Of a stretch of 64,000 nucleotides of DNA, positions 6,309 through 41,524 are shown piece after piece. The notes under the pieces were generated by a model. The model saw nothing but the letters and a program-made list of their open reading frames with translations, searched no databases and was not told where the DNA came from. This stretch comes from Patescibacteria group bacterium (GTDB lineage Bacteria; Patescibacteriota; CPR2; UBA1875): the NCBI GenBank assembly GCA_041737595.1, contig JBGSRK010000010.1, positions 117,375 to 181,374 of the forward strand, written 5' to 3'. The position numbers and the translations under genes were made by a program. Position 1 is the first letter of the stretch, and every line of letters begins with the position of its first letter.

Positions 6309-7235
6309 TTATACCTCAAGTATCCCAAGTTTAAATAATATTTTTGCTAAATAATATGCGGTATTATTATTAAAATTATAAACAGTAATAAATAATTTTA
6401 TTTTAATTGGAATAGAGTAATGAGATATTTTTTTTATAGCTAAATCGCTTGATATATAATCCTTATTTAAAATCCCAGAAATTAAAATTCTATTCAAATT
6501 TTTTTTATGACCTAATTTTATATAATCATCTTTATCAGTTAATTCTAACTTGTCGAATATTTTTTCATTTTCAAGATATAATTTTGTTTTATTTGATGAG
6601 AGTGATTGGGGTAAATTTCTCCATGCACATAAAATATCAGGTAAAACTAAAACGCCATATTTTTTTGTAATTCTTAACCATAAATCAAAATCATCAACCC
6701 CGACTAGGTTTTCATCTAAAAATCCAACTTCATTGAAGATTTTTCTAGGAACGATTACAGAACAAGTTGTAATATAATTTGTTAATAAGATTTTTTTATA
6801 TGATTCTGGTGATGGTATATATTCTAATTTTCTTAAAAAGGTATCAATAACATTATTTTTTTTATCAATAACATTGGCTGAAGTGGCGATTATCCCAATT
6901 TTACTTTTGTTATTTGATAAATTATATGACTTTATTTGTTTTTCAATCTTTTCAGGATACCAAACATCATCTTGATCACAAAAAGCGATAAAATCACCTG
7001 TTGATTTTTTTATTCCAAAATTTCTAGGCCTTGCTGGTGATCCACTATTTTTTATTTTGTAATATTTGATTCTAGAGTCATTAACAGATTTAATAATATT
7101 TTCTGAATCATCAGTAGAGCCATCATTAATGATAATCAATTCTATATTTTTATAGGTTTGATTTAAAATAGAATTAATTGACTCTTTGATGGTTTGTGAA
7201 CCATTATAAACAGGGGTAATAACACTAACCTTCAT
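6309..7235 (-). CDS. Glycosyltransferase family 2
   Basis: 308 aa with VITPVYNGSQTIKESINSILNQTYKNIELIIINDGSTDDS, the GT-A/GT2 signature. Confidence 0.8.
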   Translation of the reverse strand: MKVSVITPVYNGSQTIKESINSILNQTYKNIELIIINDGSTDDSENIIKSVNDSRIKYYKIKNSGSPARPRNFGIKKSTGDFIAFCDQDDVWYPEKIEKQIKSYNLSNNKSKIGIIATSANVIDKKNNVIDTFLRKLEYIPSPESYKKILLTNYITTCSVIVPRKIFNEVGFLDENLVGVDDFDLWLRITKKYGVLVLPDILCAWRNLPQSLSSNKTKLYLENEKIFDKLELTDKDDYIKLGHKKNLNRILISGILNKDYISSDLAIKKISHYSIPIKIKLFITVYNFNNNTAYYLAKILFKLGILEV

Positions 7236-8195: not shown

Positions 8196-9578
8196 ATGAA
8201 AAAAGATATAATAATTTTATCTGTAGGTCCAGTGCCCACTCAAGATAATAAGATCGTTGAGGGGGGAGGGCTAAGAGCCTGGGGGTTAGCTAACGGTTTA
8301 AGCCAGAATGATATTAAAGTCACTGTGGCAGTACCAGACTCTTACAAAATAGAAGACCAGAACATTAACAACATTAATATTGTTAGTTGGGATTTTAACA
8401 ATGTAATCGATTTATGCAACAAATACAATACCGTATGTGTTTTGTACTCTAGGGCAGATCTGATGCAATTTTTAACAGACAATCTTGACCCTAAAAAAGT
8501 AGTGATCATAGATTTGTATGTACCAATATACATAGAGTCGTTAGCTCGAAAAGTTCCTAGAGATATTAATGGGGTTAATAACCATTTGCAAAATATTAAA
8601 TATTGGAATTCAGCATTCACGAGAGGGGATTATTTTATTTGTGCAAACAAGAATCAACATCATTTGTATACTGGATTATTAAGCGCCTTTGGCAGGATAA
8701 GCCCAGTTAGTAAAGTAGAAAATATATTAAAAGAAGTCCCTTTTGGAATCTATAGCACTCCAATAGGAAACAAGGCTAAACTGCCCGCTAAATATAAAAA
8801 ACAAAATGGCGATTTTGTTATTCTTTGGTTTGGGGGCATATATCCCTGGTTTGACATAGAGCCACTACTAAAAACTATTAAAGATCTTTCTGATAAGAAT
8901 AGCCAGTTAAAGTTATATGTAGTCGGTGGCAAAAACCCGTTTGTGAAGGATGAACAATTTATTAAGAAATATAAGGATACAGTTAACCTAGCTAAGAAGA
9001 TGGGTCTTTTGGATAAAAACATATTTTTTAAGGATTGGATTTCTTACGAAGATAGAGAGTCCTGGTATAACACGGCCGATATAATAATTAATTTACATAA
9101 TCCTGGCAGTGAGTCAATGTATGCATGGAGAACAAGGGTAGTCGACTTCATTTGGGCTGGAAGACCAATAATATCTAGCGGAGGAGACGAACTAAGCTCT
9201 ATGATGGAGAAAAAAGATGCTGCTTATATCCTCAAAAGTAACACAGAAGAAGAGATTTCAAAAGCTATATTAAAGGTTAAAGATGACAAGAAATATAGAG
9301 AGAAAATAATAAATAACCTGAAAGAAATGCAAAAAAGCTTGTACTGGGAAAATACAACAAAAGAGTTGTCTAGATTTATAAATAATCCTCAAATTGCAAA
9401 GGATCGTGACTTCTTTTTAAAGAACCATATAAATTTTAGTCCCCTAGAAAAAACTCATCACAATTCCAAAGAAAATAGGAAATATAACCAGCTTTCCAGG
9501 GCTGTTTTTATCTATAAATCTGAGGGCTTAAAGTCTTTATTGAAAAGAACCAGAAATTATCTAGGAAAGTTTTTTTAA
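8196..9578 (+). CDS. Glycosyltransferase (GT4-like, two-domain)
   Basis: 460 aa. C-terminal DFIWAGRPIISSGGDELSSMMEKKDAAYIL resembles the GT1/GT4 C-domain. Divergently oriented to the flanking genes. Confidence 0.5.
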   Translation: MKKDIIILSVGPVPTQDNKIVEGGGLRAWGLANGLSQNDIKVTVAVPDSYKIEDQNINNINIVSWDFNNVIDLCNKYNTVCVLYSRADLMQFLTDNLDPKKVVIIDLYVPIYIESLARKVPRDINGVNNHLQNIKYWNSAFTRGDYFICANKNQHHLYTGLLSAFGRISPVSKVENILKEVPFGIYSTPIGNKAKLPAKYKKQNGDFVILWFGGIYPWFDIEPLLKTIKDLSDKNSQLKLYVVGGKNPFVKDEQFIKKYKDTVNLAKKMGLLDKNIFFKDWISYEDRESWYNTADIIINLHNPGSESMYAWRTRVVDFIWAGRPIISSGGDELSSMMEKKDAAYILKSNTEEEISKAILKVKDDKKYREKIINNLKEMQKSLYWENTTKELSRFINNPQIAKDRDFFLKNHINFSPLEKTHHNSKENRKYNQLSRAVFIYKSEGLKSLLKRTRNYLGKFF

Positions 9579-10941: not shown

Positions 10942-12114
10942 TTAAAATATTTTTTTTAATTTTTCCGTTAATAACTCAAAAAAACATTTTTTTTTCTTCA
11001 TTTGAATTATTAGATCTCTTGAAGATTGTAATTCTTTATGAGCGACTTCCAATGATTTTTCAAGATTTTTTATATGTTTATCTTCTTCTATTAATTTAGA
11101 AAAATTATTTTCATATTTTTTAGTAATATTCAATAAATATTGGAATTCACATAATAACTCTCCGGATGATATTTTTGATTTTTTAAATCCATCTTTTATC
11201 ACTGATCCATATAAATTAATTAATTTATTAATATTGTTATCTAAACCATGATCTTGATGAATTGATTTATAAATAAGTTTTGGATTGTTATTATTATATT
11301 TTTTTATTTCTTTAATTAAATCATTTTCTGTATATTTAAGCCTATATTTACGACCAGAAAAATTATTATATCTAATTTTATTGAAATTATTAATTGTAAC
11401 CAAACCATCAGCTCCAAAAATATCATATACTATTACATTTCTATTACATGCGAGTGATTCTAATACCCCCCTACCCAAAGTTATTATTATATCTGAATTA
11501 TTAATTTGCTCAACTATATTTTCTTTAACATTATTAGGTAGACCAACATGTTGGTATTTAATATTAATTTTTTTACATGCTGCTTTAATAACTTTTTCAA
11601 CATTTAAATCTAGATGATTACTTAAAACTAAAACTTTTTTTGGAATTTTATTCCCAATTGAGGTTGGTTTAAATCTTTTAAGATCCACTGAATTATAGAT
11701 TTTTATTATATTACTTTTTGGAATTTTATATTTATTTTTATAATGATTTTCTATTTCATCACTTGTAACAATATATTTAGAAATACCAAGATTAACTGAA
11801 GGAGGTTGTTCTATTTCAGGGATAAAGCCGTGTGACATAAATACCATTGGAGTATTTGGAAAATAAGATCGTGCCATAATTGCTGTAATATTATGTTGAG
11901 AATGAATTATATCTATTTTTACTTTTTTAAAATTATCTAAATTATCTGTAATTTCAATATTATATTTTTTTAAACTATAACTTAAATCACCTATAATTGG
12001 TGAATATATAAAAACATTATTCCCCTTTTTACTTAGATTAATTGCTAAATCTCTTGTAAAAATTTCACTTCCAGAAAGAGTGGAAAATTTTTGCACTGTA
12101 ATTAATATATTCAT
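10942..12114 (-). CDS. Glycosyltransferase-like protein with C-terminal coiled coil
   Basis: 390 aa. The N-terminal half is GT4-like and the C-terminal 80 aa are heptad/coiled-coil-like. Confidence 0.4.
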   Translation of the reverse strand: MNILITVQKFSTLSGSEIFTRDLAINLSKKGNNVFIYSPIIGDLSYSLKKYNIEITDNLDNFKKVKIDIIHSQHNITAIMARSYFPNTPMVFMSHGFIPEIEQPPSVNLGISKYIVTSDEIENHYKNKYKIPKSNIIKIYNSVDLKRFKPTSIGNKIPKKVLVLSNHLDLNVEKVIKAACKKINIKYQHVGLPNNVKENIVEQINNSDIIITLGRGVLESLACNRNVIVYDIFGADGLVTINNFNKIRYNNFSGRKYRLKYTENDLIKEIKKYNNNNPKLIYKSIHQDHGLDNNINKLINLYGSVIKDGFKKSKISSGELLCEFQYLLNITKKYENNFSKLIEEDKHIKNLEKSLEVAHKELQSSRDLIIQMKKKKCFFELLTEKLKKIF

Positions 12115-14090
12115 TTCTTCGGATGTATTTTAATTGAATTATCTATTGCTGATTCCCAAGGATATAATGTTCTATTAAAATCTGATTTAAGATGGACTGC
12201 CTTACCTTTTCTATTCAACCATTTAGTAGAATACATGGGGAAATTATTGGCATAATAATCACAAGTATCTTCCCATTGTTTAATAGATATTGATTTGCCA
12301 TAATGTTGTGAGAAAAATTTTGTAATAATTTTACCATCAACAAAAGGTTCCCTTGCATCAATACCGGAAAATTTTACGCTTGGGTTATTCCGCCAAATCA
12401 TTAGAATATCTCTTCTTTCTGGGCCAAAATATTGTCTAAAATTTAATAGTTTTCCATTTCTATATGGGGATTTATCGTTGGTTGTTATATAAGCATCAAA
12501 TAGACTAATACGAATACCATTAATATCTAAAGACTCTTTACTTAATAAATATTTTTTTATATCACCAATAAAACGCTCATCTGCATCAAAATAAAAGAAC
12601 CATTTTGGGTTGTATTTTCTACCTGCTTCTAATAATAATTGACGGCTTTCTGTTTCTTCTACTGCTCTATCCTTTTTCCATATTTTATTATTTATCACTT
12701 CTATAACTTTTGGATGAGAATAAACTTTATCTAGGGTATCATCCGTACTAGCATCATTTAATACAATAATTTTATCTACAAATTTACTAACATGATCAAT
12801 TGTATCCTGTATTATTAAACTTTCATTCCTAACTCTAGTTAGCCCAATTATTTCAATATTATCATGCCAAAAACTACCTGACGAAATTATAGCTGGAGTT
12901 TTTGTAATGTTCTGTATATAAAATTTATGAGATTTAAACTTTTCAAAATATACTTCATCACTTTTCAAATCTCTAATACTAATTGATATTTGATAAATTC
13001 CAGTTTTAATGCTCGGTATCGAAATTTTAAAATAAAATTTTTTAGTGTCAAATAATTCATCAATCATTCTTATAGAATCAGCAATAATAAGATTATTCTT
13101 TTCGTCGTAAAGTCCAACTCCTAATAACAATCTTGATCGGATATTAACATCTGATTCCCCATAATCAACCTTTCCGCTTGCAATAATATCATCTCCAACA
13201 AGAAATTCCTGAGTTTTTTCATTTTTGCTATTTTTAAATTCTAAATTATTAACGCTTACGGTTGATTTTTTATCATTTTTATTTTTTTCAGGTAAAATAT
13301 TTAAAATGTTATATTTATGCACAGCTTCCTTAGGACTTCCAATAAATGAAATTTTACCTTTATCAAGCAATAAAACACGATCACAAAATTCTTCAATATT
13401 ACCCATTGAGTGACTAACAAAAACAACTGTTTTACCATTTTGTTTTAATTCTCTAAATTTATCAAAACATTTTTGTTGAAAATTATAATCACCAACAGCT
13501 AAAACCTCATCTATTAATACTATATCTGCATGAGCCTGAACAGCAACAGAAAAAGCTAATCTAACTTGCATACCTGAAGAAAAGTTCTTTAATTTATGAT
13601 CAACAAATTCTTCTAACTCAGCAAATTCAATTATCTCATTAAATTTTGTATCAATTTCTTTTCTAGTAAGGCCAAGTATTGTACCATTTAAATAAACATT
13701 ATCATGTGCCGAAAGTTCGGGATTAAAACCAACACCTAGTTCTAAAAATGGAGATAATCGACCCTTAATGCTTATCTTACCGCTATTAGGTTGGTATATT
13801 TTTGCTAACATCTTTAACATTGTAGATTTACCAGAACCATTTCTCCCAATAATTCCAAAGAACTCCCCCTCATTAATATTAAAAGAAATATCTTCAGCAA
13901 CCTTTAATTCTGTATACTTATTGCGTTTAAATAAGTTAAAAATAAATGATTTTAATGTTTTTCTTTGTTCATGTGGAATCTTAAAAATTTTAGATACATG
14001 GGAAACACTAATCGAAAGATTTTTATTATTAACATCTTTTTTAACTATGTCCTCTTTTTTTTGTTTATAACTAAAAATATTAAAAAACAT
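12111..14090 (-). CDS. Polysaccharide ABC exporter ATP-binding protein (Wzt/TagH-like) fused to a C-terminal GT2-like glycosyltransferase domain
   Basis: 659 aa. Walker A GRNGSGKST, the ABC signature LSGGMQVRLAFS and Walker B DIVLIDEVLAVGD lie in the first 270 aa. The C-terminal roughly 250 aa have TRVRNESLIIQDTIDHV...IIVLNDASTDDT...FYFDADE, a GT-A DXD-type pattern. Confidence 0.75.
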   Translation of the reverse strand: MFFNIFSYKQKKEDIVKKDVNNKNLSISVSHVSKIFKIPHEQRKTLKSFIFNLFKRNKYTELKVAEDISFNINEGEFFGIIGRNGSGKSTMLKMLAKIYQPNSGKISIKGRLSPFLELGVGFNPELSAHDNVYLNGTILGLTRKEIDTKFNEIIEFAELEEFVDHKLKNFSSGMQVRLAFSVAVQAHADIVLIDEVLAVGDYNFQQKCFDKFRELKQNGKTVVFVSHSMGNIEEFCDRVLLLDKGKISFIGSPKEAVHKYNILNILPEKNKNDKKSTVSVNNLEFKNSKNEKTQEFLVGDDIIASGKVDYGESDVNIRSRLLLGVGLYDEKNNLIIADSIRMIDELFDTKKFYFKISIPSIKTGIYQISISIRDLKSDEVYFEKFKSHKFYIQNITKTPAIISSGSFWHDNIEIIGLTRVRNESLIIQDTIDHVSKFVDKIIVLNDASTDDTLDKVYSHPKVIEVINNKIWKKDRAVEETESRQLLLEAGRKYNPKWFFYFDADERFIGDIKKYLLSKESLDINGIRISLFDAYITTNDKSPYRNGKLLNFRQYFGPERRDILMIWRNNPSVKFSGIDAREPFVDGKIITKFFSQHYGKSISIKQWEDTCDYYANNFPMYSTKWLNRKGKAVHLKSDFNRTLYPWESAIDNSIKIHPKK

Positions 14091-14932
14091 TAAACATCCT
14101 CTGCAAAACTATTAGACATTTTATTAAAAATAATATAACCAATAATAAATGTTATTAAAACTATAATCATAGGCAACCAGCTAAAGCACCAAAAATCGTT
14201 TGTAGTTAAAGTAGCGCCCTCCCCAATTAATATTATTCTCATATCAGAAATTACCTGTGCTAAAGGTGAAAGCATTTGAAATTTAGCATATTTAATTGGC
14301 ACTAAACTAAGTGGATAAATAATTGGAGTAGCATAAAATAATATTTGATTTAATACTTCCCAAATATGGCCCAAGTCTCTAAATTTAACAAAAATAGAAG
14401 AAAGTGCCAAACCAACACCTAAAATAAATAAATATAACTCGAAAATATATAAAAGAATAAATAATACACCAAAGTTGAAATTAACACCGTTAATAATTGC
14501 AAAAACAAAAACAGCAAACATATTTAAAACAAAAGTAAGTAATGCTGTAAAAGTTGATGAAATAACTAAAATTATTCTAGGGAAATATACTTTTCTAATT
14601 AAATCACCTTTTGAAGTAATGGACTGCATAGCTGCAGATGTTGCTTCGGCCCAAAACCCAAATGTTACAACACCTAATAATAAATATATTGGGTAATGGG
14701 GGATTGAATCCCCTAATTTAAAAACACTAGTAAATACAACATATAAAACCATGAAATATGCCAAAGGTTTGCCTAGTGACCAAAAATAACCAAGGATTGA
14801 TCTCTCATACTTTAGTTTAAAGTCTGTAAAAGAAAGTTCTTTAATTAGTTCCCAATAATTATGGTTAGTATTAAATTTATTATTATTTTTCATTAACTTC
14901 AATATACTATCAAATTTGATTATAAAAATCAA
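14090..14932 (-). CDS. ABC-2 type polysaccharide export permease (Wzm/TagG-like)
   Basis: 280 aa with 6 TM helices, an ABC-2 membrane profile, and a start overlapping the ATPase stop. Confidence 0.75.
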   Translation of the reverse strand: MIFIIKFDSILKLMKNNNKFNTNHNYWELIKELSFTDFKLKYERSILGYFWSLGKPLAYFMVLYVVFTSVFKLGDSIPHYPIYLLLGVVTFGFWAEATSAAMQSITSKGDLIRKVYFPRIILVISSTFTALLTFVLNMFAVFVFAIINGVNFNFGVLFILLYIFELYLFILGVGLALSSIFVKFRDLGHIWEVLNQILFYATPIIYPLSLVPIKYAKFQMLSPLAQVISDMRIILIGEGATLTTNDFWCFSWLPMIIVLITFIIGYIIFNKMSNSFAEDV

Positions 14933-17092
14933 TTAATAGATTATAGGTCCAAGAAAAAGAGAATTAAGTGCATTATTAGAAATTGGAACTATATTACCCC
15001 ATTTATATAATGGATCATAAACACTATGTTCATTAAAAGTTTGTGCACTAAAAACTGGCATTTTAGAACCTGACCCAATAACATAAACTGAACCATTATT
15101 TGAACCAAGTCTAGTTAGACGATTTGGAGAAGGATAATTTAAAAGAAAGGTATTATTTTTAGTATAAAAAATATTTATCCATGCAAACCCCCAATTATAA
15201 AAAGTATCTACATCAACGATTGGCCTTTTACCATCATCATCCATAAAATAAACCGAACCGCCATACGAATAGGTTACCAAACGTGGAAAAGTAATAAGTG
15301 CTCCTTTTGTCATTAAATTATAGGTATTTGCTGAAATTTTTTTAATATCACCCCATCCTAAACCCCAATTATCTTTAAATATATTAAAAGTGTCTGAGTC
15401 ATTAATTGGTCTTAATTTACCTTCTTGGGCCAAATAAACACTCCCAGTGTACAAAGCTAATTGAGTTAGTGGTTCTCCAGTTGGATATGTGTTAATAGTT
15501 GATAATGGTGCCCAATATACATTATCCCAATTAAAACCCCAATTATTGAATATACTACTATTTATAATTGGTCTCTTGTAGCCATTTTCAATATAAAAAA
15601 CACCACCAAGATTATATGATCCAATAAGATAGTCTTCAAAATTAACATTAAAAGTAACTGAATTTGCGTCGTGGCTATTTTGGGTAATTCTTATTTTATT
15701 CGCAGAATCATAAAACTCTCCTCCATCAGTAAGGGCAATATCTGACCAATTATTTGCTGGAGTCATATCTAAAAGATATGTGTCAAAAGGAACAGGCGGA
15801 TTATAATAAGGAGTATTAAAATAATCGGTATAAATTCTCCCAATAAGTCCCCTCGTAACCCCGGTGGGAAGATTAATGTCAAACCCTGTCGGTTGGCGAT
15901 ATTCAAACCAATAATAATCACTGGTGTTTGGTTTGGCGATTTTTAAAGCATGGTATCCCATTGTCGAGCTTTCCAAATCATCAATCGTATATGTCCCCGA
16001 CGTAGTAATGGTTCTCACCTTACCGTCCGGGACCCAACCTGCTTTATTTTTCCAGGCTGCATTCATATGAAAAACATTTGTCCAGCTACCGTTGCCACCC
16101 ATAACATCATATGCATCCTCATATCCTGTTGCCCCAGGCGTGCAAGAGGCATAAGCAACGATTGTTGATGCTCCGCAGTCTAAATTGCTTGAATGACCAG
16201 CACCGAAATTGTGCCCTAATTCATGAGAATAAACAAACCGGTCATTGTTTCCATTGTACCAAGTTTCGTCCCCGGAGACTTCTCCTAAACCTGCCCAACT
16301 ACACGACAAATTGTATGGGAAAATATACATAAATTTGGCATAGCTTGCTAAATTATATCCAGCATCTGTTGCGGCAGTGCGAGCAGCAACAGTCCATTGA
16401 TCTAATAGATTCCCAACTCCATAATATGAACATCCGACACCACTACTAAAAGGAATCGTGAGCCAACTTGACGTAACATTAGTAACGGTGCCATTTATTG
16501 ATACTTCTCCATTAGAAGCTTGTTTATAATAACTATTTGCCGAATCGGCATTTGAAAAAATCTGACCAGTAATTAGTGCCTGAGTAAAAGGCGCTGCTGA
16601 TGGGTCATTTTCCCAATTAAAAGTAATTGCAAGAACATCTTGCTGGCCGGTAATTTCTCTAACTGGTGGAATTAGAGTTTTGACTGTTTCAGCAACAAAT
16701 AAACCATCTATTTGATAACCTTCAACATTAACAGTTGAACCTGATTCTGCCATTTTCGTATCTTTTAAACCATAAAGATCAAATTTATTATTATCAGTTT
16801 CTAAAATAGTTATTTCAGTACTAGTATTCTCAGATGAAGCAATTAATCTTTTCACTTCTCCTTTTATACTTATCTTGGGAATATCTTTAAAATCATCTTT
16901 TATGAGCGCTTTTGAATCTGTTTGTATTTTTTTAATTAAACTTTTTTTATCAGAAATATGGGTGTACGTTTTTTGTTTATCTGGATTATTTATTTTAAAT
17001 TGTAATTGATTATTAACATCAATAGAATTTGGACTACCCCAAAACAAGACTAAAGCAAAAACAAACAATAGAAGATGTAATATTTTCTTCAT
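14933..17092 (-). CDS. Secreted metzincin-family zinc metalloprotease with C-terminal ~40-aa repeat domain
   Basis: 719 aa with a signal peptide (MKKILHLLLFVFALVLFWG) and VYSHELGHNFGAGHS, which is HEXXHXXGXXH. The C-terminal roughly 210 aa consist of repeated G-x-Y-x-I-x-x-G-x-[KR]-R-P-I...F...GF-W units shared with the next gene. Confidence 0.6.
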   Translation of the reverse strand: MKKILHLLLFVFALVLFWGSPNSIDVNNQLQFKINNPDKQKTYTHISDKKSLIKKIQTDSKALIKDDFKDIPKISIKGEVKRLIASSENTSTEITILETDNNKFDLYGLKDTKMAESGSTVNVEGYQIDGLFVAETVKTLIPPVREITGQQDVLAITFNWENDPSAAPFTQALITGQIFSNADSANSYYKQASNGEVSINGTVTNVTSSWLTIPFSSGVGCSYYGVGNLLDQWTVAARTAATDAGYNLASYAKFMYIFPYNLSCSWAGLGEVSGDETWYNGNNDRFVYSHELGHNFGAGHSSNLDCGASTIVAYASCTPGATGYEDAYDVMGGNGSWTNVFHMNAAWKNKAGWVPDGKVRTITTSGTYTIDDLESSTMGYHALKIAKPNTSDYYWFEYRQPTGFDINLPTGVTRGLIGRIYTDYFNTPYYNPPVPFDTYLLDMTPANNWSDIALTDGGEFYDSANKIRITQNSHDANSVTFNVNFEDYLIGSYNLGGVFYIENGYKRPIINSSIFNNWGFNWDNVYWAPLSTINTYPTGEPLTQLALYTGSVYLAQEGKLRPINDSDTFNIFKDNWGLGWGDIKKISANTYNLMTKGALITFPRLVTYSYGGSVYFMDDDGKRPIVDVDTFYNWGFAWINIFYTKNNTFLLNYPSPNRLTRLGSNNGSVYVIGSGSKMPVFSAQTFNEHSVYDPLYKWGNIVPISNNALNSLFLGPIIY
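15334..15509. repeat. ~177-bp near-identical segment shared between the two paralogous secreted-protein genes (copy 1)
   Basis: Direct comparison: ...tttaatatcaccccatcctaaaccccaattatctttaaatatattaaaagtgtctgagtcattaattggtcttaatttaccttcttgggcc... There are 2 mismatches against 17543..17718, and the flanks are about 80% identical. Confidence 0.8.
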
Positions 17093-17141
17093 TGTATTTA
17101 TTATAACAAAATAATTAGTATTTTATTTTAAAAATAAAATA

Positions 17142-19205
17142 CTAATAAATAATTTCTCCCAATTGTAATAAAGAGAGTGGATAATCAGAAATTGGTACAA
17201 CATCTTCCCAGCGATATAATGGATCAAATGTACTGTGGTTAATAAACGATTGAGCACTTGAAATTGGTCTTTTTGTTTTATTTTCAATGAGATAAATTGA
17301 CCCACGGTTAGAAACTAATCTAGTTAAGCGATTAGGGGAGGGGTAATTTAAAAGAAAGTTATTATTTTTAGTATAAAAAATATTATTCCAAATAAACCCA
17401 AAATTATTAAAAGTATCAATACTGTTAATTGGTCTTTTGCCATCGATATCCATAAAAAAAACTGAACCACCATATGAATAGGTAACTATTCTAGGAAAAT
17501 ATATTTTCACACCGACATTATAATAATTAAATAGATCAGTAGAAATTTTTTTAATATCACCCCATCCTAAGCCCCAATTATCTTTAAATATATTAAAAGT
17601 GTCTGAGTCATTAATTGGTCTTAATTTACCTTCTTGGGCCAAATAAACACTCCCAGAGTACAAAGCTAATTGAGTTAGTGGTTCTCCAGTTGGATATGTG
17701 TTAATAGTTGATAATGGTAAATTTGTATAATTATTTGGATACCCCCATGAATTATTTATTTCAATTTTATTTGCGGGTCTTTTTTCTCCACCATCAATCA
17801 AATAGTAACCATTTAGACCTTTTGTAGATACCCAAGGATTAACATTTGACCCTATAGATAAAAAATTAATAGAACTATCATCTAATATTGTAATATTATA
17901 ATCTTCAAGTTTTAATATAGCTATTAGTTGGTCGGAAATTAATTTTTTATTTCCATCATCAATAATATATTTTAAACCACTACTACCCTTAACTATAAAT
18001 GAAGAAAAATTATTCCCTAATATAAAATTAATATCACTTGAAATATCAGTAATTTTTATTTTAGGATAACCTAATTGTGAAATTAATTCTGGGTTTGTGA
18101 TATATCTCAATATCCCGTTATCCATAAAATAAAATTTACCGCTTTCTGGCTTTCTTATTATTTGTGATAATGACCCAATATCGTTTAACGTATATGAATT
18201 AATTGTATTAAGAATAATAATATCATCCCAATTAAACCCCCATAAATTAAATTGTTCTGGACTTACTATACCAAGTCTTGACCCTCTATCTATAAAATAA
18301 ACATGACCATTAATATTTATTAGCTTTGTTAAATTAACTAAACTTGTTGTATAACTATTAAAACTTTCTTCTGTAATATAATAAATTTTTCTTGTATTAA
18401 ATCCCCAACTATTAAAAATATTTGCTGGAATTGGATATTTTTTATTATTATCGACTAGATATACTCCCGTAGGGTTGTTTTCATTAACAATCAAATATGG
18501 GCCATCAGAATTAACAGTGCTAAAAAAATTTGTAAAAATTAGATAAAACGATGTTTGGATATGTGGCGTATATCTATACAAGGCTGCGGTTGGTCCATTT
18601 TTAATAATAAATGTTTGGCCATCAATTGTTATCGGATAATCAACCCAGTATTTAGTAGTACCAAAATCATTATATTCACTATGAGAAATTGCATAATCAG
18701 ACCACTTTTTTAGTCCAAAAGAACCCCATGCGACCTGCATTGAAAACCCCTTATAAACAGATAAAGTAATGCCACTTTCTAAATAGCCATAACCCATAGC
18801 TCCGTCTAATGAACTTTGCCCATTAAGTAACACTGAATTAGTAATTAAACTTTGTTCTTTTTGAAGTGTTACAAGAATTACTTTTGGGCTAAGACCATTC
18901 CAAATTGCACAATTATATATAATTTTTGATGCAGACCAACCCTTAACATTAACCGAGGGGCCTATATATACATCATTCGGCTCAGTATAATTTTTAAGAT
19001 AACTATTTTTTTCAACTAAAAATGACTGAATTTCAGCTTCATTCATAGAATATCTATTATAATATACCCCTTCATCAATAACTAAACTATTATCAAGGGC
19101 TGCCAATACTTCACTGGGGTTAAAAATAAGAAACAAACATGAAACAAAAAACATTAACCCTAGGATAATTAGTTTTGAATTAAATTTAAAGATAGTTAAT
19201 TTCAT
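17142..19205 (-). CDS. Secreted repeat protein, paralog of the preceding gene's C-terminal domain
   Basis: 687 aa with a signal peptide. The C-terminal region is near-identical to the 14933..17092 product (STINTYPTGEPLTQLALY.GSVYLAQEGKLRPINDSDTFNIFKDNWGLGWGDIKKIS...) and more internal repeats of the same type follow. Confidence 0.55.
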   Translation of the reverse strand: MKLTIFKFNSKLIILGLMFFVSCLFLIFNPSEVLAALDNSLVIDEGVYYNRYSMNEAEIQSFLVEKNSYLKNYTEPNDVYIGPSVNVKGWSASKIIYNCAIWNGLSPKVILVTLQKEQSLITNSVLLNGQSSLDGAMGYGYLESGITLSVYKGFSMQVAWGSFGLKKWSDYAISHSEYNDFGTTKYWVDYPITIDGQTFIIKNGPTAALYRYTPHIQTSFYLIFTNFFSTVNSDGPYLIVNENNPTGVYLVDNNKKYPIPANIFNSWGFNTRKIYYITEESFNSYTTSLVNLTKLININGHVYFIDRGSRLGIVSPEQFNLWGFNWDDIIILNTINSYTLNDIGSLSQIIRKPESGKFYFMDNGILRYITNPELISQLGYPKIKITDISSDINFILGNNFSSFIVKGSSGLKYIIDDGNKKLISDQLIAILKLEDYNITILDDSSINFLSIGSNVNPWVSTKGLNGYYLIDGGEKRPANKIEINNSWGYPNNYTNLPLSTINTYPTGEPLTQLALYSGSVYLAQEGKLRPINDSDTFNIFKDNWGLGWGDIKKISTDLFNYYNVGVKIYFPRIVTYSYGGSVFFMDIDGKRPINSIDTFNNFGFIWNNIFYTKNNNFLLNYPSPNRLTRLVSNRGSIYLIENKTKRPISSAQSFINHSTFDPLYRWEDVVPISDYPLSLLQLGEIIY
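17543..17718. repeat. ~177-bp near-identical segment (copy 2)
   Basis: Second copy of the repeat at 15334..15509. Confidence 0.8.
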
Positions 19206-19252: not shown

Positions 19253-20143
19253 TTAATTTAAATATAAATTTAATGATTCTTCCCAATCCGCAATATAAAT
19301 TCCACCCTCTTTTGCTTTTGTAAGATCTAGCGCTGAATAAGCAGGACGATTGGCAATTTTACTCGTATCTTTCCCGGCATAATATTCTTCAGTGGTAACA
19401 TATTTAACGTTTGAATTTTTGCCGGCAATTTCAAATATTTTCTTTGCAAAATCAGCCCAGGAAATAATTGGTCCATCACCAGTTACATGATAAATACCAG
19501 GGGGGATAGGAGTGGAAGAAGGAGATTGCCGCGTCGCAAGCTCCTCGCAATGACGGAGGGTCGAGAGAGAAATATCATACATTGCGCGAGCAAGATCGAG
19601 TGCATAGGTTGGTCGACCAACTTGATCTGAAACTACAGTTAATTCTGGATATTTTTCAGAAAGATCAATCATTGTTTTTACAAAGTTTTTACCATCACCA
19701 TAAACCCACGACGTTCGAAGAACATAACCACCTACTGCAAGTGTATGTTTTTCACCGGCTAGTTTTGTGGCACCATAAACACTTATTGGGTTAGGGGTTG
19801 CGTCTGGCTTGATTGGGCTAGTTGCGGTTCCATCAAAAACATAATCAGTTGAAATATAAATCATTTTAACGCCATGTTTTTGGCATGAAATTGCCAGATT
19901 TTCTGTCCCCCTATCATTAACAAGTGTACAAATATCTTTATTTTCTTCACATCCATCTACATTTGTATATGCAGCACAATGGAATAACCATTCTGGTTTA
20001 AATTTAATAAATGTTTTTTCTATTGCCTCTAAATCTGTAATATCCATATCATCAGAATCAGTAAAAAGAGTTACTTCATCTTTTAATACTTCTGAGAGTG
20101 CATGACCAAGCTGACCATGACCGCCAGTAACTAATACTTTCAT
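19253..20143 (-). CDS. rfbD: dTDP-4-dehydrorhamnose reductase
   Basis: 296 aa with MKVLVTGGHGQLGHAL, an RmlD-type Rossmann start. Confidence 0.8.
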   Translation of the reverse strand: MKVLVTGGHGQLGHALSEVLKDEVTLFTDSDDMDITDLEAIEKTFIKFKPEWLFHCAAYTNVDGCEENKDICTLVNDRGTENLAISCQKHGVKMIYISTDYVFDGTATSPIKPDATPNPISVYGATKLAGEKHTLAVGGYVLRTSWVYGDGKNFVKTMIDLSEKYPELTVVSDQVGRPTYALDLARAMYDISLSTLRHCEELATRQSPSSTPIPPGIYHVTGDGPIISWADFAKKIFEIAGKNSNVKYVTTEEYYAGKDTSKIANRPAYSALDLTKAKEGGIYIADWEESLNLYLN

Positions 20144-20193
20144 ATATTCTCCTTTCTTCGTTATTCAAATATAGACTGTAATGAAGAAATATT

Positions 20194-20769
20194 TTAGGTT
20201 AATTCTTTTAAAAGAGAATGGGATTTGTCCTTATCGGATATAATAGCCTCCGAAAGAGGAATGGGCCAATCTATGGCAAGGTCTGGGTCTGCAAGGTTTA
20301 TTAGAGTGTATTTTGCTTCTGGCGACCAGTGGGCATCTACTAAATAAGTATATAAAACATCTGGCGTTAGGGTTTGAAATGAGTTGGCACAGCCTTTGGG
20401 CACAAACAGTGCCTTTTGGGGATTCATCTCAAAAGTCTCTACCATCCCATAAGTATCTCCCTCTCGCAAATCAACTATCGCCGTAAATGCTCTTCCGGTT
20501 TGGATACTAATAAACTTGCTCCATGGTTCTGCATGGATACCCCTAGTGACACCTCTTTCTTTATTCGCAGATACGCTTAATTGTACTGGGACAAAATCTT
20601 CTGGAAGTCCGGCTATTCTCAGTTTTTCTAATTGGAAACTTTCCTTGAACCAACCTCTTTCATCACCGTTTAAAACCAAATCAAAAAATAATAGTCCAGG
20701 TATGCGGGTTTTATGGGACCTAATTTCTTTGTTTTCATACAGCGACTTATCGTAGTTGTCGTTTTTCAT
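20194..20769 (-). CDS. rfbC: dTDP-4-dehydrorhamnose 3,5-epimerase
   Basis: 191 aa with cupin-fold RmlC motifs (RGIHAEPW...FVPKGCANSFQTL). Confidence 0.85.
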   Translation of the reverse strand: MKNDNYDKSLYENKEIRSHKTRIPGLLFFDLVLNGDERGWFKESFQLEKLRIAGLPEDFVPVQLSVSANKERGVTRGIHAEPWSKFISIQTGRAFTAIVDLREGDTYGMVETFEMNPQKALFVPKGCANSFQTLTPDVLYTYLVDAHWSPEAKYTLINLADPDLAIDWPIPLSEAIISDKDKSHSLLKELT

Positions 20770-20774
20770 AATAA

Positions 20775-22498
<1,724 letters not shown>

Positions 22499-24031: not shown

Positions 24032-25783
24032 TTATAAATAGACTAAATAAATATCAAGCTTGGGGACTGTTGTTTTTTCGCCAGAATCAAAAACTAGAAT
24101 ATTGCCCGAGATATCAATACGAGGTAAATAATAAATTGGGAAATCAATTATTGTTTCCGTGGATGAGCTAATGTCATAGATATGGATGTAATAATAACCA
24201 CTTTCAAATTTTGTATAAACAATACGCCCTGAATCTATTCGAATCGCGCCAGAAACACCTCCGTCTGTAATCAATTTTTCTTCTCTGGTCTTAATATTTA
24301 TTGAATATAATTTTTTATCCTTTTCCCAAATAATATAATCTTCTGAAATATCTATTGTCCCCGTTGACCCAATATTTGTTTTTATCAACTCTTCAGCGCC
24401 CCCAATTTCTTTAAGGTATAAATCGGTCCGGTTCCCAATTCTTGTATCTTTCCAAATAACATTATCTTCTGAAATTTTTGGTTGATATTGACTCCCGGTC
24501 CCAGTTACAAAAGGAATTTCTCCGTTTGACTTATTTAAATCAAGATAATAAATATCAGAATCCTTACCATTCCGCATATCACTCCAAACAACAATCCCGC
24601 TATCATTTAAAACTGGGCTTAATTGATCTTTTGGCGCATTTGTGACCAAAAAAGGCGAGTTTGATATAAAACTATAACAATAAATATTCGTTGCAGTTGA
24701 ACTAAAATGTGAATCTTGGGCTGTATAACATGCATAATCTCCACCAACTTGTGGCTCTTGGGCAATACTTACACCTTCTATTGCAATATTTACACCCTTA
24801 ATTTCACCATCTGAAATATCATAATAAAATAACTTTTTGGGGCTATTGCCGTTTTCGTTTTTCTTCCAATCCTGCCAAACAATTATTTTCCCATTCGTAG
24901 TCGGATATCTTTGACTTTCGGGATCGTTTGTAACATTAATAACTTCTCTTTTCAGTTCAATTGATTTTTCTTCAGATTCAGCCGTTAGACCATTATTAAA
25001 GTAAGTAATGACTCGATAATAATAATTTTTACCTGTTAATAGATTTTTATCTTCATAATTTAATTTATTAACATCATTGGTTTCGAAAATTGGTGAAAAC
25101 CCAGCCCCAGATTCGAGGGAACGCTCTAAAACATACTTATTAAAATCTGAGTCTTCTGATTTAGCCCAAGAAATATTAATCGAGTTACTTTGAGAATTAA
25201 GTACAATTTCTGAACCTTTTTGTGGTCGATGAGAATCTATAAAATCAGTAGGTGAATAATAAAAATCTTTAATATTTTCTTTATCTAACCCGCTCGGCCA
25301 ATAATTCGCCTTTAGATTATTTTTTCTAATTTCAAAATGTAAATGTGATGCCCATCTCCCATCGGCATTTCCTATTTTTCCAATACAATCACCTTTTTTT
25401 AATAATTGACCTTCATTTACATTAATTTCAGAAAGATGTGCATATTGTGACCAAACTGTTATTGGGTTATCATGTTTTATTAAAACTATTTTTCCCCAAC
25501 CACTACCATAATCTTTTGCACTTATAATAGTTCCGTCTGAGATGGAATATACAGGGTCCCCATAATCATCTTCACCACTTCCCCTGTTCCAATCTTCTCC
25601 TGGATGCCAAATTGTTCCGTTCCATTCAAGATAACCCCATCCATCATTCCCACCAAATATTTCACCTCTTTTATAATTATCTCCATCGGGTTTGCCCGCA
25701 GGATAATCAAAACCAGCATTACTTGCAAAAGTAATATTTGGTAATAATAACATAAGAATTATAAGGTAAAAAAAATTAAACAT
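24032..25783 (-). CDS. Secreted M23-family peptidoglycan endopeptidase with FN3-like and beta-propeller-like C-terminal domains
   Basis: 583 aa with a signal peptide. GDPVYSISDGTIISAKDYGSGWGKIVLIKHDN...YAHLSEINVNEGQLLKKGDCIGKIGN...HLHFEIRK is the LytM/M23 motif set. The C-terminal half has repeated Y/W-rich propeller-like blades. Confidence 0.75.
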   Translation of the reverse strand: MFNFFYLIILMLLLPNITFASNAGFDYPAGKPDGDNYKRGEIFGGNDGWGYLEWNGTIWHPGEDWNRGSGEDDYGDPVYSISDGTIISAKDYGSGWGKIVLIKHDNPITVWSQYAHLSEINVNEGQLLKKGDCIGKIGNADGRWASHLHFEIRKNNLKANYWPSGLDKENIKDFYYSPTDFIDSHRPQKGSEIVLNSQSNSINISWAKSEDSDFNKYVLERSLESGAGFSPIFETNDVNKLNYEDKNLLTGKNYYYRVITYFNNGLTAESEEKSIELKREVINVTNDPESQRYPTTNGKIIVWQDWKKNENGNSPKKLFYYDISDGEIKGVNIAIEGVSIAQEPQVGGDYACYTAQDSHFSSTATNIYCYSFISNSPFLVTNAPKDQLSPVLNDSGIVVWSDMRNGKDSDIYYLDLNKSNGEIPFVTGTGSQYQPKISEDNVIWKDTRIGNRTDLYLKEIGGAEELIKTNIGSTGTIDISEDYIIWEKDKKLYSINIKTREEKLITDGGVSGAIRIDSGRIVYTKFESGYYYIHIYDISSSTETIIDFPIYYLPRIDISGNILVFDSGEKTTVPKLDIYLVYL

Positions 25784-29826: not shown

Positions 29827-29919
29827 TGGCGGTGAGGGAGAGATTCGAACTCTCGCGCCGGATTACTCCGACCTACAGGTTTAGCAAACCCGCCCCTTCA
29901 GCCTCTTGGGTACCTCACC
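29827..29919 (-). tRNA. tRNA-Ser (anticodon GCU), CCA encoded
   Basis: Reverse complement GGTGAGGTACCCAAGAGGCTGAAGGGGCGGGTTTGCTAAACCTGTAGGTCGGAGTAATCCGGCGCGAGAGTTCGAATCTCTCCCTCACCGCCA. It folds as a cloverleaf with a long variable arm and a T-loop TTCGAAT. Confidence 0.85.
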
Positions 29920-30212
29920 TCGTCAGCGTAAGCTGACGAGCTTCAAAATCTTTTTATAAAAAATTTCTATGCTCTTTCGCTACGCTTCCTCTGCAGTTGA
30001 AATCGACAGATTTCAACTGGAAAGAAACAGCTTAAGCCATTTAAATCTCTTCCTTTAACTAATATGGCGGGGTAAAGATTCCCCTTCGCTCCAACTCAGG
30101 GTCCGGGTCACTGCACACCGAAAGCTCCAGGTTTTCGCTTTCTCTCGCTCCCTTCGAATCCCCTTTATCTACAATTATTTTTACGTTCTAGACAAGCTAG
30201 ATCGTAAAAATA
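29920..30212 (-). ncRNA. Candidate structured ncRNA between the two tRNA-Ser genes (5' part tmRNA-like); identity unresolved
   Basis: The stretch has no ORF, is GC-elevated, and has perfect hairpins at 29920..29940 (9 bp) and 29994..30019 (11 bp). The - strand at about 30165..30120 reads GGGGAUUCGAAGGGAGCGAGAGAAAGCGAAAACCUGG, which resembles the conserved tmRNA 5' region GGAUUCGACGGGA...GCGAAACCC. I could not find a canonical GGGG acceptor 5' end or a T-arm/CCA 3' end. Confidence 0.25.
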
Positions 30213-30302
30213 TGGCGGAGAGGGAGGGATTCGAACCCCCGGTACCCTTGCGGGTACAACAGTTTTCAAGACTGCCGCAATCGACCACTCTGCCACCTCT
30301 CC
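30213..30302 (-). tRNA. tRNA-Ser (anticodon UGA), CCA encoded
   Basis: Reverse complement GGAGAGGTGGCAGAGTGGTCGATTGCGGCAGTCTTGAAAACTGTTGTACCCGCAAGGGTACCGGGGGTTCGAATCCCTCCCTCTCCGCCA. Confidence 0.85.
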
Positions 30303-30359
30303 AGGTCTAAAACTACAAAAGAGCTTGCTATCGCTCCTTTACTGATTAATCTGTTTTTC

Positions 30360-30435
30360 TGGTGAGCCCGGTGCGACTCGAACGCACGACCAATTGCTTA
30401 AAAGGCAACTGCTCTACCAACTGAGCTACGGGCCC
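30360..30435 (-). tRNA. tRNA-Lys (anticodon UUU), CCA encoded
   Basis: Reverse complement GGGCCCGTAGCTCAGTTGGTAGAGCAGTTGCCTTTTAAGCAATTGGTCGTGCGTTCGAGTCGCACCGGGCTCACCA. Confidence 0.85.
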
Positions 30436-30506: not shown

Positions 30507-32120
30507 ATGCAGGAGGGTACACAAAAAGATATACGGTCAGTTGTTTCTTCATATAACCGAGATGAAATAGAGAAAGCGACTGAAGAACAAGCAAAGGAAT
30601 TGAAGATTCCTTATTATGATGTTAGAAAATCTGAAATCGCAACCGATATTCTTTCATTAATAAATAAAGAAGAAGCTCAAAGAGGAGTTATTCCGATTAT
30701 GTTGAAGAATAAATCTTTGAGTCTTGGAGTTACTGATGTTCGCGAAGATAAGATCCAAGATATTATTAGTTATTTAAAAAATAGTTTTAATATTAATAAA
30801 GTATTAATTTCTTGGGCATCTGTTAAAGATATTCTCCCAAGATACGATGGGTTAATAAAAAGAAATCTTGAAGAAAAAGAAGATTATGAGATCACCGCAA
30901 CTGAAGGAATATTAACTTTTTCTGAATTAGAAAGCCAAATAAATTCTGCACCACTCCAAAATATTTTAAGCTTTATTGTTTCTTCGGCTATTTCTTCTAA
31001 TGCCTCTGATATACACCTAGAACCTCAAAAAGAGGGGGCAAGAATTAGATTCCGAGTTGATGGAGTACTACATGTTGTTGGTACTATGGGTGAGGAGAGA
31101 TTTAAATATATTTTATCTCAAATAGAACTTTCTGGTGGGATGAAGCTTAATGTAGATGAAGCTCAAGAAGGAAGAATTGAGATAAAAATGGCTAAAAAAA
31201 ATATCAGTGTTCGTATTGAAACAATGCCAACACTTTATGGCGATGATATTTCTTTGCGTATTTTTAATACAGAGTCAACTTTGCTGAATCTTTCAGATTT
31301 AGGGTTATATGATTATAATTTAAAATTAATTAATAATTCACTAGCCAGACCCCAAGGAATGATTTTGGTTGTTGGACCAACTGGAGCAGGAAAAACCTCG
31401 ACAATTTATGCGGTATTAAATGTACTAAATAAACCAGAAGTAAAAATTATTACCCTCGAAGACCCAATTGAATATGCTCTAACTGGAATTACTCAAAGTC
31501 AAATACATGAAGATGAGAGCTTTAATATAAGGCTTAAAGCTGTTTTAAGGGAAGACCCAGATATTGTTATGGTTGGAGAAATTAGAGATGCTGAAACAGC
31601 CGATGTAGCACTCCACGCAGCATTAACTGGCCATGTTATGATATCAACCTTTCACGCCTACAACGCCGCAACAGCGGTTACATTACTCAGGGAGATTGCA
31701 ACTAATGGAACATTACTAGCTTCTGCAATAAATTTAATAATTGCTCAGAGATTAGTTAGAAGAATTTGTGAAAAATGTAAAATAGAAAAAAAATTGACTG
31801 AAAAAGAATACCAATATGCTGCAGATTTGTTTGATGAAATACCTGATGAAATAAAAGGTGAAAGAAAATTATCATTCTTTGAGGGCAAAGGTTGTGAAGA
31901 ATGTAAGGGGATCGGATATAAAGGTAGAATTGCTATTCATGAAATGCTACAAATGAATGTTGAATTTCAAAAAGTTGTCGCAAGAGAAGATATAACTGTT
32001 AGTGAAATCCAAGAAGCGGCAAAAAAATCTGGAATGGTTACTATGGAACAAGATGGGCTCTTAAAAGCAATTGATGGGATTACATCACTTTCAGAAGTAA
32101 TGAAGGCAATAAAAGAATAA
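30507..32120 (+). CDS. GspE/PilB-family secretion/pilus assembly ATPase
   Basis: 537 aa. Walker A VVGPTGAGKTS, ITLEDPIEY, a His box, and the C-terminal tetracysteine CEKC...CEEC motif of PilB/GspE are all present. Confidence 0.8.
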   Translation: MQEGTQKDIRSVVSSYNRDEIEKATEEQAKELKIPYYDVRKSEIATDILSLINKEEAQRGVIPIMLKNKSLSLGVTDVREDKIQDIISYLKNSFNINKVLISWASVKDILPRYDGLIKRNLEEKEDYEITATEGILTFSELESQINSAPLQNILSFIVSSAISSNASDIHLEPQKEGARIRFRVDGVLHVVGTMGEERFKYILSQIELSGGMKLNVDEAQEGRIEIKMAKKNISVRIETMPTLYGDDISLRIFNTESTLLNLSDLGLYDYNLKLINNSLARPQGMILVVGPTGAGKTSTIYAVLNVLNKPEVKIITLEDPIEYALTGITQSQIHEDESFNIRLKAVLREDPDIVMVGEIRDAETADVALHAALTGHVMISTFHAYNAATAVTLLREIATNGTLLASAINLIIAQRLVRRICEKCKIEKKLTEKEYQYAADLFDEIPDEIKGERKLSFFEGKGCEECKGIGYKGRIAIHEMLQMNVEFQKVVAREDITVSEIQEAAKKSGMVTMEQDGLLKAIDGITSLSEVMKAIKE

Positions 32121-40751: not shown

Positions 40752-41524
40752 ATAAAGTAAAAATAGCAATATTTGATTTAACAGACTGTGAAGGATGTGA
40801 ATTACAGTTTATCGCGCTAAGAGAAAAATTGTTAAAAAGAGGTAATGATTTTGAGATAACAAACTGGAGATTGGCAAATGAAATTAATTCTAATGGTCCA
40901 TTTGATGTTACTTTTATTGAGGGTTCCCCGATAGCAGAAACAGACATTGAGACATTAAAACAAGCAAGAAAAATGTCAAAGATTATTATTACTCTGGGAG
41001 CTTGCGCCGATCTTGGTGGTATGCAATCAGCTCTTCTAGAAAAAAAGAGAGAAAGAGACCTATTAGAAGTTTATGGTCCTAAATATAAAACAAATTCACT
41101 CCCTCCAAAGCCTGTTTCTTATTATGTTGATGTGGATTTACATTTGCCCGGTTGCCCTGTCAACGAAGAAGAGCTTGAAAGGCTTCTTTCTTCACTTTTT
41201 ATTGGCAAAAAGTTTTCGCCTAAAAATCATTCGGTTTGTCTCGACTGTAAGGTTGCTGGTAACCCTTGTTTATTTTTAGATGAAGGTTTTTGTTTGGGCC
41301 CCGTCACTCGAGGTGGATGCAAAGCTCCTTGCCCAGCCAATGGAATTCGTTGCTTTGGTTGTTTTGGTCCAATAGAGGCTGCTAATTTACCTGCTCTAAA
41401 AAGTGCGGGCGAAAAACATAATTCGGTTGAAAATATAGATAATACTTTAAGTTTGTTTTTTTCAAAGCAAGATGTGTATAAAGAATATAAAATATCACAG
41501 AAAAAGGGGAAAAATGTCTCATAA
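40748..41524 (+). CDS. hydD: [NiFe]-hydrogenase small (delta) subunit
   Basis: 258 aa with CEGCELQF...GACADLGGMQ...C, the Nuo 20-kDa / hydrogenase small subunit pattern. Confidence 0.75.
   Translation: MNKVKIAIFDLTDCEGCELQFIALREKLLKRGNDFEITNWRLANEINSNGPFDVTFIEGSPIAETDIETLKQARKMSKIIITLGACADLGGMQSALLEKKRERDLLEVYGPKYKTNSLPPKPVSYYVDVDLHLPGCPVNEEELERLLSSLFIGKKFSPKNHSVCLDCKVAGNPCLFLDEGFCLGPVTRGGCKAPCPANGIRCFGCFGPIEAANLPALKSAGEKHNSVENIDNTLSLFFSKQDVYKEYKISQKKGKNVS

Follow-up and report, generated by a model that had tools for sequence, protein, structure and literature searches.

We analyzed a 64,000-nucleotide stretch of DNA (the window) from a Patescibacteria group bacterium (GenBank assembly GCA_041737595.1, contig JBGSRK010000010.1, positions 117,375 to 181,374 of the forward strand), focusing on two adjacent genes, A and B, whose predicted products are secreted enzymes that carry a common C-terminal repeat module. 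The genome has a GC content of ∼31%, and all coordinates below are those of the window unless another contig is named. The DnaK of this uncultured, ultrasmall organism matches a 'Patescibacteria group' sequence at 85% identity and one of candidate division WS5 at 81%, in keeping with a placement among the Patescibacteria. Both genes lie on the reverse strand, with gene B (17142–19205, 687 aa) upstream of gene A (14933–17092, 719 aa) and separated from it by 49 AT-rich bases; the stop codon of A abuts the start of the next open reading frame (ORF), a gene for an ABC-2 permease. Because a scan for promoters and terminators performed no better on the window than on shuffled sequence, operon structure rests here on gene spacing and orientation. 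The two ORFs lie exactly where an initial annotation of the window, made from the letters without database searches, had placed them, and its description of their products as paralogous secreted repeat proteins is borne out, as each has one N-terminal hydrophobic segment of the signal type with no second membrane segment and the C-terminal modules are 68% identical. In B the predicted signal peptide or N-terminal anchor covers residues 1–36 (19098–19205, reverse strand), with a cleavage site, placed by eye, between SEVLA and A. It contains the single hydrophobic 15-mer of the protein (hydropathy 2.97, at residue 13), and no further hydrophobic 19-mer was found in B.

Behind its signal peptide, A consists of an N-terminal region, a predicted M11 metzincin domain and four repeat units (residues 489–719; 14936–15628, reverse strand). 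B consists of a predicted lysozyme-like glycosidase domain (residues 31–245; 18471–19115, reverse strand) and eight units (residues 244–687; 17145–18476, reverse strand) that were recovered by a motif scan and a hidden Markov model (HMM), each with E ≤ 1e-16. In both proteins the unit is ∼55 aa long (53–61). The initial annotation had the motif of the unit right but gave it a length of about 40 aa, and its picture of a C-terminal repeat region of about 210 aa holds for A but not for B, where the eight units fill residues 244–687. Collinearity with the four units of A is limited to the last four units of B (units 5–8; 17145–17834, reverse strand), and this shared four-unit module aligns by BLASTP with 68% identity over 227 aa to residues 495–719 of A.

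The 3′ thirds of A and B align without gaps at a constant offset of 2209 nt, and within this alignment a tract of 177 nt, which covers the end of unit 1 and most of unit 2 of the A module, is identical at 175 positions between the A copy (15333–15509, reverse strand) and the B copy (17542–17718, reverse strand). The tract and its 2 mismatches had been reported in the initial annotation, and we find exactly that number in register. Over the codon-aligned module (684 nt) the two genes are 72.7% identical with 187 mismatches. On the gene-3′ side of the tract identity is 63–80% per 20 codons, and on the gene-5′ side it drops to ∼50% behind a small indel; overall the flanks are nearer 70–75% identical than the 80% they had previously been credited with. 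When the mismatch positions were permuted, 0 of 20,000 permutations reached the observed 178-nt run, and the longest permuted run was 67 nt. Runs were allowed ≤2 mismatches and were counted on the codon alignment, where the tract gains one base over its 177 nt. The tract is real and non-random.

Identity within the tract extends to sites that do not affect the protein. Among its 59 codons 56 are identical, the remainder comprising two synonymous changes and one replacement, and when only degenerate codons encoding the same residue in both proteins are counted, the identical ones are 54 of 56 within the tract and 58 of 92 beyond it (Fisher p = 1e-6). Since synonymous sites are also homogenized, constraint on the protein fails to account for the identity. 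Over its first 18 aa the tract has 72% identity to an ortholog of A described below (A2) versus 39% to orthologs of B (B2 and P0002). Because this part of the tract is of the A type, B is the probable recipient, and the tract would represent the most recent conversion event, with A probably as the donor.

Relatives of the pair show that this homogenization is not confined to the window. The best homolog of A is P0122 (A2), a protein of 46% identity encoded on a 4.5-kb contig (L002, NCBI GCA_964617835.1; also recorded as L003 at JGI), where its gene lies directly downstream of a gene for a 689-aa B-like protein (B2), so that gene order and orientation match those of the window. Another tandem is found in a third and distant genome (L004, metagenome-assembled genome DBS2-1.bin108), where a B-like gene is followed by a gene for a protease with four units, which is a subtilase (Pfam S8, E 2.5e-49) and not an M11 enzyme. 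A scan of genome contigs with A returned one distant locus, a metagenome scan with the module alignment confirmed at least one contig, of 1.5 kb, and the tandem pairs found number at least three, counting that of the window. The four-unit modules of A and B are ∼68% identical (67.5–67.8%), those of A2 and B2 75.3–77.9%, and those of the L004 pair 85.5%, as compared with 60.6% between the orthologs A and A2 and 48.0% between B and B2. Across the three genomes, module identity is 67.5–85.5% within genomes versus 33–61% between them. The catalytic parts are orthologous, with 42.8% identity for A and A2 and 48.3% for B and B2. In a four-sequence codon alignment of the window and L002 pairs, 96 informative nucleotide sites group the modules by genome and 6 sites support each of the two alternatives. 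These counts, together with the codon comparison given above, uphold the recent gene conversion proposed in the initial annotation. In every genome examined the modules group by genome and not by orthology, which we interpret as repeated non-allelic gene conversion leading to concerted evolution.

The homogenization is confined to units 2–4 of the module. Unit 1 groups by orthology (A–A2 70% versus A–B 35%), which implies that A carried the module before the window and L002 lineages split and that the module is both old and mosaic. Along its length, identity varies between 45 and 100% per 20 codons, and the tracts of high identity lie at differing positions in the window and in L002. Between the two L004 genes an exact match extends over 526 nt, or over 539 nt when one mismatch is allowed (6632–7170 and 8629–9167 of that contig). 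This block starts abruptly inside module unit 2 and ends precisely at the stop codon, and the first unit of the S8 protein is diverged from the first unit of its partner.

By sequence comparison A is an M11 (gametolysin-type) metzincin and a predicted zinc protease, as had been proposed. Residues 167–354 (16031–16594, reverse strand) match PF05548 (Peptidase_M11) with 38.7 bits against a cutoff of 21 (E 7.8e-10) and Reprolysin_5 with E 6.4e-8, and HELGHNFGAGHS is found at residues 290–301, within which HELGHNFGAGH (residues 290–300; 16193–16225, reverse strand) forms the zinc-binding motif. Of 120 homologs, 118 have HExxHxxGxxH. A methionine 29 residues past the third histidine (residue 331, in a D-x-M-G context; DVMGG at residues 329–333) is ∼90% conserved, making Met331 a candidate Met-turn residue. 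A has 418 homologs, most of them annotated with PF05548. Like other M11 metzincins with C-terminal anchors, A combines an above-threshold PF05548 match, the histidine motif and a downstream methionine with C-terminal modules. It differs from them in the kind of module, as the M11 homologs bear SLH, Ig-like, NEW3 or FN3 modules at the C-terminal position where A has its repeats, and the repeat module occurs in only two of the 120, A itself and P0122. A further difference is that the N-terminal 140 aa of A have nearly no homologs. Specifically, residues 27–150 (16643–17014, reverse strand) gave one weak match among 240 proteins and may form a lineage-specific pro-domain.

B had been overlooked as an enzyme in the initial annotation. 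Its N-terminal domain is predicted from a structural model to have a lysozyme-like alpha/beta fold with a substrate groove. Among 1528 homologs of B, which are mostly hypothetical proteins of Patescibacteria, the domain is present in all of the 120 best, and most of these are 450–470 aa long and consist of the domain plus four repeats. The motifs LQKEQSL and YRYTPH (residues 210–215) are invariant in the alignment of the family, as is the glutamate of the first motif (E117) in 30 sequences; E117 lies at the end of helix 77–88 of the model. We consider it likely that B is a peptidoglycan glycosidase with Glu117 as the putative catalytic acid. The N-terminal 215 aa of B had no Pfam match at E ≤ 1, no NCBIfam match and no PDB sequence match. 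Among known enzymes the modeled fold is nearest to GH73, a family of the lysozyme-like superfamily that includes LytB, Atl-GL, FlgJ and Auto, yet the domain has no sequence match to PF01832, the test giving none among 30 family members at E ≤ 10 and one weak match to SLT_4 (0.0046). We therefore describe the domain as lysozyme-like and closest to GH73, as judged from the model, and not as a GH73 domain. Two sets of database matches were set aside: a PADLOC match of B to BrxHI (E 0.0033 over 27 residues) is noise, and PDB sequence matches to a fatty-acid-binding protein and Trm112, returned by queries with B, with a profile of its N-terminal domain and with a profile of the module, are due to chance. 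A reading of the locus as a defense system likewise found no PADLOC support and was rejected.

In the model of the module (predicted template modeling score, pTM, 0.60), the secondary structure assigned by DSSP runs b-b-b-a-b-a, four times over. Each unit is thus a four-stranded sheet with two helices, in agreement with published descriptions of the fold: the EccB repeat has four strands and two helices in ∼55 aa and was noted to be PlyCB-like (PMC4769845), and the binding domain of LysIME-EF1 is a four-stranded sheet capped by two helices (PMC7098653). Fold searches with the module gave modest scores of 5.4 for a Streptococcus mutans C-terminal domain, 5.3 for the LysIME-EF1 binding domain, 4.9 for that of Lys170 and 4.2 for PlyCB. 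Against a viral library only two uncharacterized actinophage proteins were found at E ≤ 1e-3 together with weak single-unit matches to phage lysins, which lend support without deciding the matter. PF05108 (EccB) is matched by 12 of 31 related modules (best E 1.5e-6) and by 4 of 50 long relatives. On the strength of the models, we assign the repeat to the fold shared by PlyCB, the binding domains of enterococcal endolysins and the EccB repeats. The family is very large, as a profile search of 1.84 billion representatives returned 9,469 clusters (50% identity) at E ≤ 1e-3 and 4,305 at E ≤ 1e-10.

The partner domains of 50 long family members are Amidase_2 (19), SpoIID (18), S8 (4), Glucosaminidase (2), CAP (2) and M23 (1), so that at least 40 of the 50 are fused to Amidase_2, SpoIID, Glucosaminidase or M23, and two further loci (L001 and L005) add CAP, M23 and BNR as partners. 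Because of this fold, of fusion partners that are mostly peptidoglycan hydrolases, of the SLH and Ig-like anchors at the corresponding C-terminal position of M11 homologs and of the locus context described below, the repeat array is probably a cell-wall-binding module by analogy, which agrees with the suggestion of the initial annotation that it may anchor the proteins to the cell wall or to glycan. The streptococcal phage endolysin PlyC (PlyCA and PlyCB), Lys170 and LysIME-EF1 are phage proteins whose binding units are separate subunits, whereas A and B are encoded by cellular genes, have their units concatenated covalently in one chain (3–10 units in relatives) and combine them with a novel lysozyme-like domain and with proteases; similarity to the phage proteins is undetectable in sequence, and the fold scores are the modest ones given above. 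EccB, with its repeats R1–R4, is a core subunit of the ESX type VII secretion system. A and B differ from it in having neither the EccB central domain, nor its N-terminal transmembrane and cytoplasmic part, nor type VII secretion genes nearby, and in carrying the module on predicted secreted hydrolases, where that of the window falls below Pfam detection.

Two other contigs with such repeats are described here as observations in their own right. On L001, intact genes encode a lysozyme-like domain with 8 units, a 476-aa protein with 5 units, a CAP domain with 10 and an M23 domain with 3; among them, at 13817–16772 of the forward strand, lie five short ORFs with 1–3 repeat units each, which look like frameshifted or pseudogenized repeat genes or sequencing errors within a densely packed group of genes that carry the module. 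A 1.5-kb metagenome contig (L005, 226–1452, forward strand) encodes a BNR/PSII_BNR-type propeller segment fused to four units that belong to the clade of the A module and are 52% identical to it.

The pair is embedded in genes for the synthesis and export of polysaccharide. Directly upstream of B are rmlD, rmlC, rmlB and rmlA for dTDP-rhamnose synthesis (19253–22498, reverse strand; Pfam matches RmlD_sub_bind 7e-80, dTDP_sugar_isom 7.5e-38, GDP_Man_Dehyd/Epimerase and NTP_transferase 3e-59). Directly downstream of A is a Wzm/Wzt-type exporter (12111–14932, reverse strand, by Pfam) that consists of the ABC-2 permease (14090–14932) and an ATP-binding cassette (ABC) ATPase fused to a family 2 glycosyltransferase (GT2) domain (12111–14090). 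The order on this one strand is rmlA, rmlB, rmlC, rmlD, B, A, the ABC-2 permease gene, the ABC ATPase-GT2 gene and two family 4 glycosyltransferase (GT4) genes. Around the L004 pair lie genes for nucleotide-sugar dehydratases and epimerases, for GtrA and for Wzm/Wzt with a Wzt_C domain, and at the L001 locus of the B-ortholog P0002 an ABC-2 transporter and a GT4 gene are nearby.

Taken together, we consider it likely that A and B form a two-gene cassette of secreted, wall-targeted enzymes whose shared module is homogenized by repeated gene conversion. With good though slightly lower probability, both proteins would be exported and tethered to the wall through the repeat array, and non-covalent binding by the repeats would put the two enzymes on one wall polymer. 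As to its identity, PlyCB binds streptococcal wall polysaccharides at their polyrhamnose backbone (bioRxiv 10.1101/2021.03.19.436156), and a tentative candidate in the present case is a rhamnose-containing polymer that the neighboring rmlABCD, glycosyltransferase and Wzm/Wzt genes would synthesize and export. Glycosidase and protease may then jointly remodel the wall or S-layer of the producing cell, a role that we favor by a small measure. Non-allelic conversion between the tandem genes would overwrite stretches of one module copy with the other, and our proposal is that such conversion between adjacent genes keeps the modules alike because both enzymes must read the same address. The likeness of the modules is the observed consequence; it may have been selected for, or it may be a by-product of proximity and similarity.

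Several points weigh against this reading or narrow it. The A-to-B polarity of the tract rests on 18 residues and hence on few sites. The copies are known from assembly alone, and bubble-popping by an assembler may slightly inflate identity inside the tract; the 526-nt exact block of L004 is a repeat of the type that assemblers can mishandle and is more exposed to this than the tract of the window. The window's own module had no significant Pfam match, and the idea of a rhamnose ligand draws on the neighborhood in two loci and on analogy. A closed ring in the style of the PlyCB octamer and the Lys170 tetramer does not follow from the unit numbers, as a strict count of four or eight was rejected in view of relatives with 3, 5, 6 and 10 units besides 4 and 8, and the model has a pTM of 0.60. 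Finally, generality is limited by the three tandem pairs found.

The alternative that survives best concerns the target of the enzymes and is compatible with gene conversion. Here the pair would be a lytic cassette that an epibiotic cell of the candidate phyla radiation (CPR) directs against the envelope of its host, with repeats that recognize a polymer of the host wall and with conversion keeping both enzymes tuned to one host. The organism does belong to Patescibacteria, whose cultivated members are reported to be obligate episymbionts (PMC12206443, PMC10633639). The fold of the repeats is also common to the binding domains of phage endolysins, which are aimed at the walls of other cells, and one cassette combines a glycosidase with a protease. 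Set against this, the pairs of the window and of L004 sit on the same strand within the locus by which the cell makes and exports its own wall polysaccharide, the architecture of about 460 aa with a lysozyme-like domain and four repeats is near-ubiquitous in CPR genomes, as expected of a housekeeping autolysin, and toxin-immunity or secretion-system linkage is absent next to the pair. Action on a host envelope is for these reasons unlikely in our view. A more elaborate version, in which the pair is a conserved CPR envelope-opening cassette, the module is its host-recognition element and conversion copies changes in specificity so that the targets of both enzymes switch together, is more doubtful still.

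Returning to the homogenization of a shared module by repeated conversion, the origin of the likeness could instead be a one-off acquisition in which each lineage on its own derived the protease module from a recent partial duplication that took in the 3′ end of B. The variable protease partner (M11 in the window and L002, S8 in L004), the restriction of the module to two of the 120 M11 homologs and the end of the L004 block exactly at a stop codon would all fit such an event. It is nevertheless improbable given that the first unit of A has its ortholog in the first unit of the L002 protease and is unlike that of B, so that the module predates the split, and given that the mosaic identity and the positions of the tracts, which differ by genome, are what repeated short conversions predict. 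The diverged first unit of the L004 S8 protein points the same way.

A technical origin of the near-identity, through collapse, a chimeric join or bubble-popping of diverged paralogs during metagenome assembly, deserves mention because De Bruijn assemblers can erase the few differences between very similar repeats, as might be suspected for the 526-nt exact identity of the L004 block. The window indeed comes from a metagenome-assembled contig whose proteins occur once, on one contig; the exact A and B proteins are each in single-member clusters, and the exact protein was absent from the contig index searched. We regard an artifact as very improbable. The 2 mismatches that were kept and the unique flanks imply that both copies were traversed separately, and the exact runs inside the tract (29, 85 and 61 nt) are shorter than typical maximum k-mers, which permits assembly without collapse. 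Bubble-popping needs near-identical input, so that it can polish a tract but cannot create one. Grouping by genome extends across the whole module, regions of 63–80% identity included, and the pattern is seen in three unrelated assemblies, with L002 recovered in two records (NCBI and JGI).

Purifying selection on a constrained peptide, combined with AT-biased codon usage, can hardly have kept the 59 codons alike without transfer of DNA. All relatives of the clade share the peptide FNIFKDNWGxGWxDI and a GC content of ∼31% narrows the choice of codons, but this explanation is contradicted by the much lower synonymous identity of the flanks in these two genes, the tract includes PLSTINTYPTGEPLTQLA, which is not conserved between orthologs (39% to the B-orthologs), and orthologs with the same peptide diverge in DNA (A–A2 53–75% in those windows). 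Programmed variation of an exposed antigen, of the pilin or VlsE type and suggested by the initial annotation as an analogy, is equally hard to credit, since tract-wise recombination between surface-protein genes and an L001 cluster in which intact repeat genes and fragments could serve as donors are outweighed by the presence of the repeat in A and B only within the 64-kb window, without silent cassettes, and by an outcome that homogenizes two enzymes in the most conserved part of the module and not in a variable loop.

Modular wall hydrolases with common binding repeats and conversion between tandem paralogs are both well known. In pneumococcal choline-binding proteins, in the CWB2 proteins (Cwp) of C. 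difficile and in SLH proteins, one wall-binding module is combined with different catalytic domains. The gene pair resembles these families in using one repeat module across catalytic domains within a genome, and it resembles other cases of concerted evolution of tandem paralogs in its partial conversion, mosaic identity and grouping by genome. What is distinctive relative to the shared-module families is the tandem arrangement of a predicted glycosidase and a protease, the exchange of M11 for S8, and homogenization of units 2–4 only. A search of open-access literature, which is weak evidence on this point, gave no prior account of the EccB/PlyCB fold in CPR or of conversion in wall-binding autolysins, nor any that brings shared wall modules and concerted evolution together for this fold. 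New in this work are the assignment, from models, of a very large unannotated CPR repeat family to the PlyCB/EccB fold, the recognition of an equally common unannotated CPR domain as lysozyme-like, the pairing of a predicted glycosidase with a protease (M11 or S8) in the three CPR genomes examined, inside a wall-polysaccharide locus in the window and L004, and a putative binding module with concerted evolution in all of these genomes.

Much of bacterial diversity belongs to Patescibacteria, whose surface proteins are mostly annotated as hypothetical, and the locus gives two very common CPR domains names and functions that can be tested. It is also a clean natural example of gene conversion that would keep two enzymes on one address, and it connects the EccB repeats of type VII secretion with a large family in which the fusion partners suggest binding to the wall. 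Should the polysaccharide of the neighboring genes prove to be the ligand of the repeat, then ligand and anchored enzymes would become predictable together from sequence, and the module could be developed into a probe or affinity handle that targets CPR cells or their hosts. Under the host-recognition version, the module would mark the host range of uncultured Patescibacteria in their genomes.

Some further features of the locus and the window were noted. In the exporter ATPase (12111–14090, reverse strand), ABC_tran covers residues 66–196 and Glyco_tranf_2_4 residues 421–507, where the L004 counterpart has Wzt_C instead. A 100-aa ORF antisense to this gene (13768–14070, forward strand) is most likely spurious. 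Near the locus, a 583-aa Peptidase_M23 protein (24032–25783, reverse strand) has ∼400 unannotated residues and is without the PlyCB/EccB-like repeat. Elsewhere in the window are a T2SSE-type pilus or secretion ATPase (30507–32120, forward strand), a homolog of the NiFe-hydrogenase large subunit (41472–42770, forward strand), a TraG-like P-loop ATPase of type IV secretion or conjugation (51755–53536, reverse strand), and four tRNA genes at 29830–30435 and 43664–43736. At 45889–48607 of the forward strand a gene for DnaA (Bac_DnaA, DnaA_N and DnaA_C) is followed by a 366-aa ORF (47507–48607) at the usual position of dnaN, and this arrangement makes it probable that the window contains the region of the chromosomal origin of replication.

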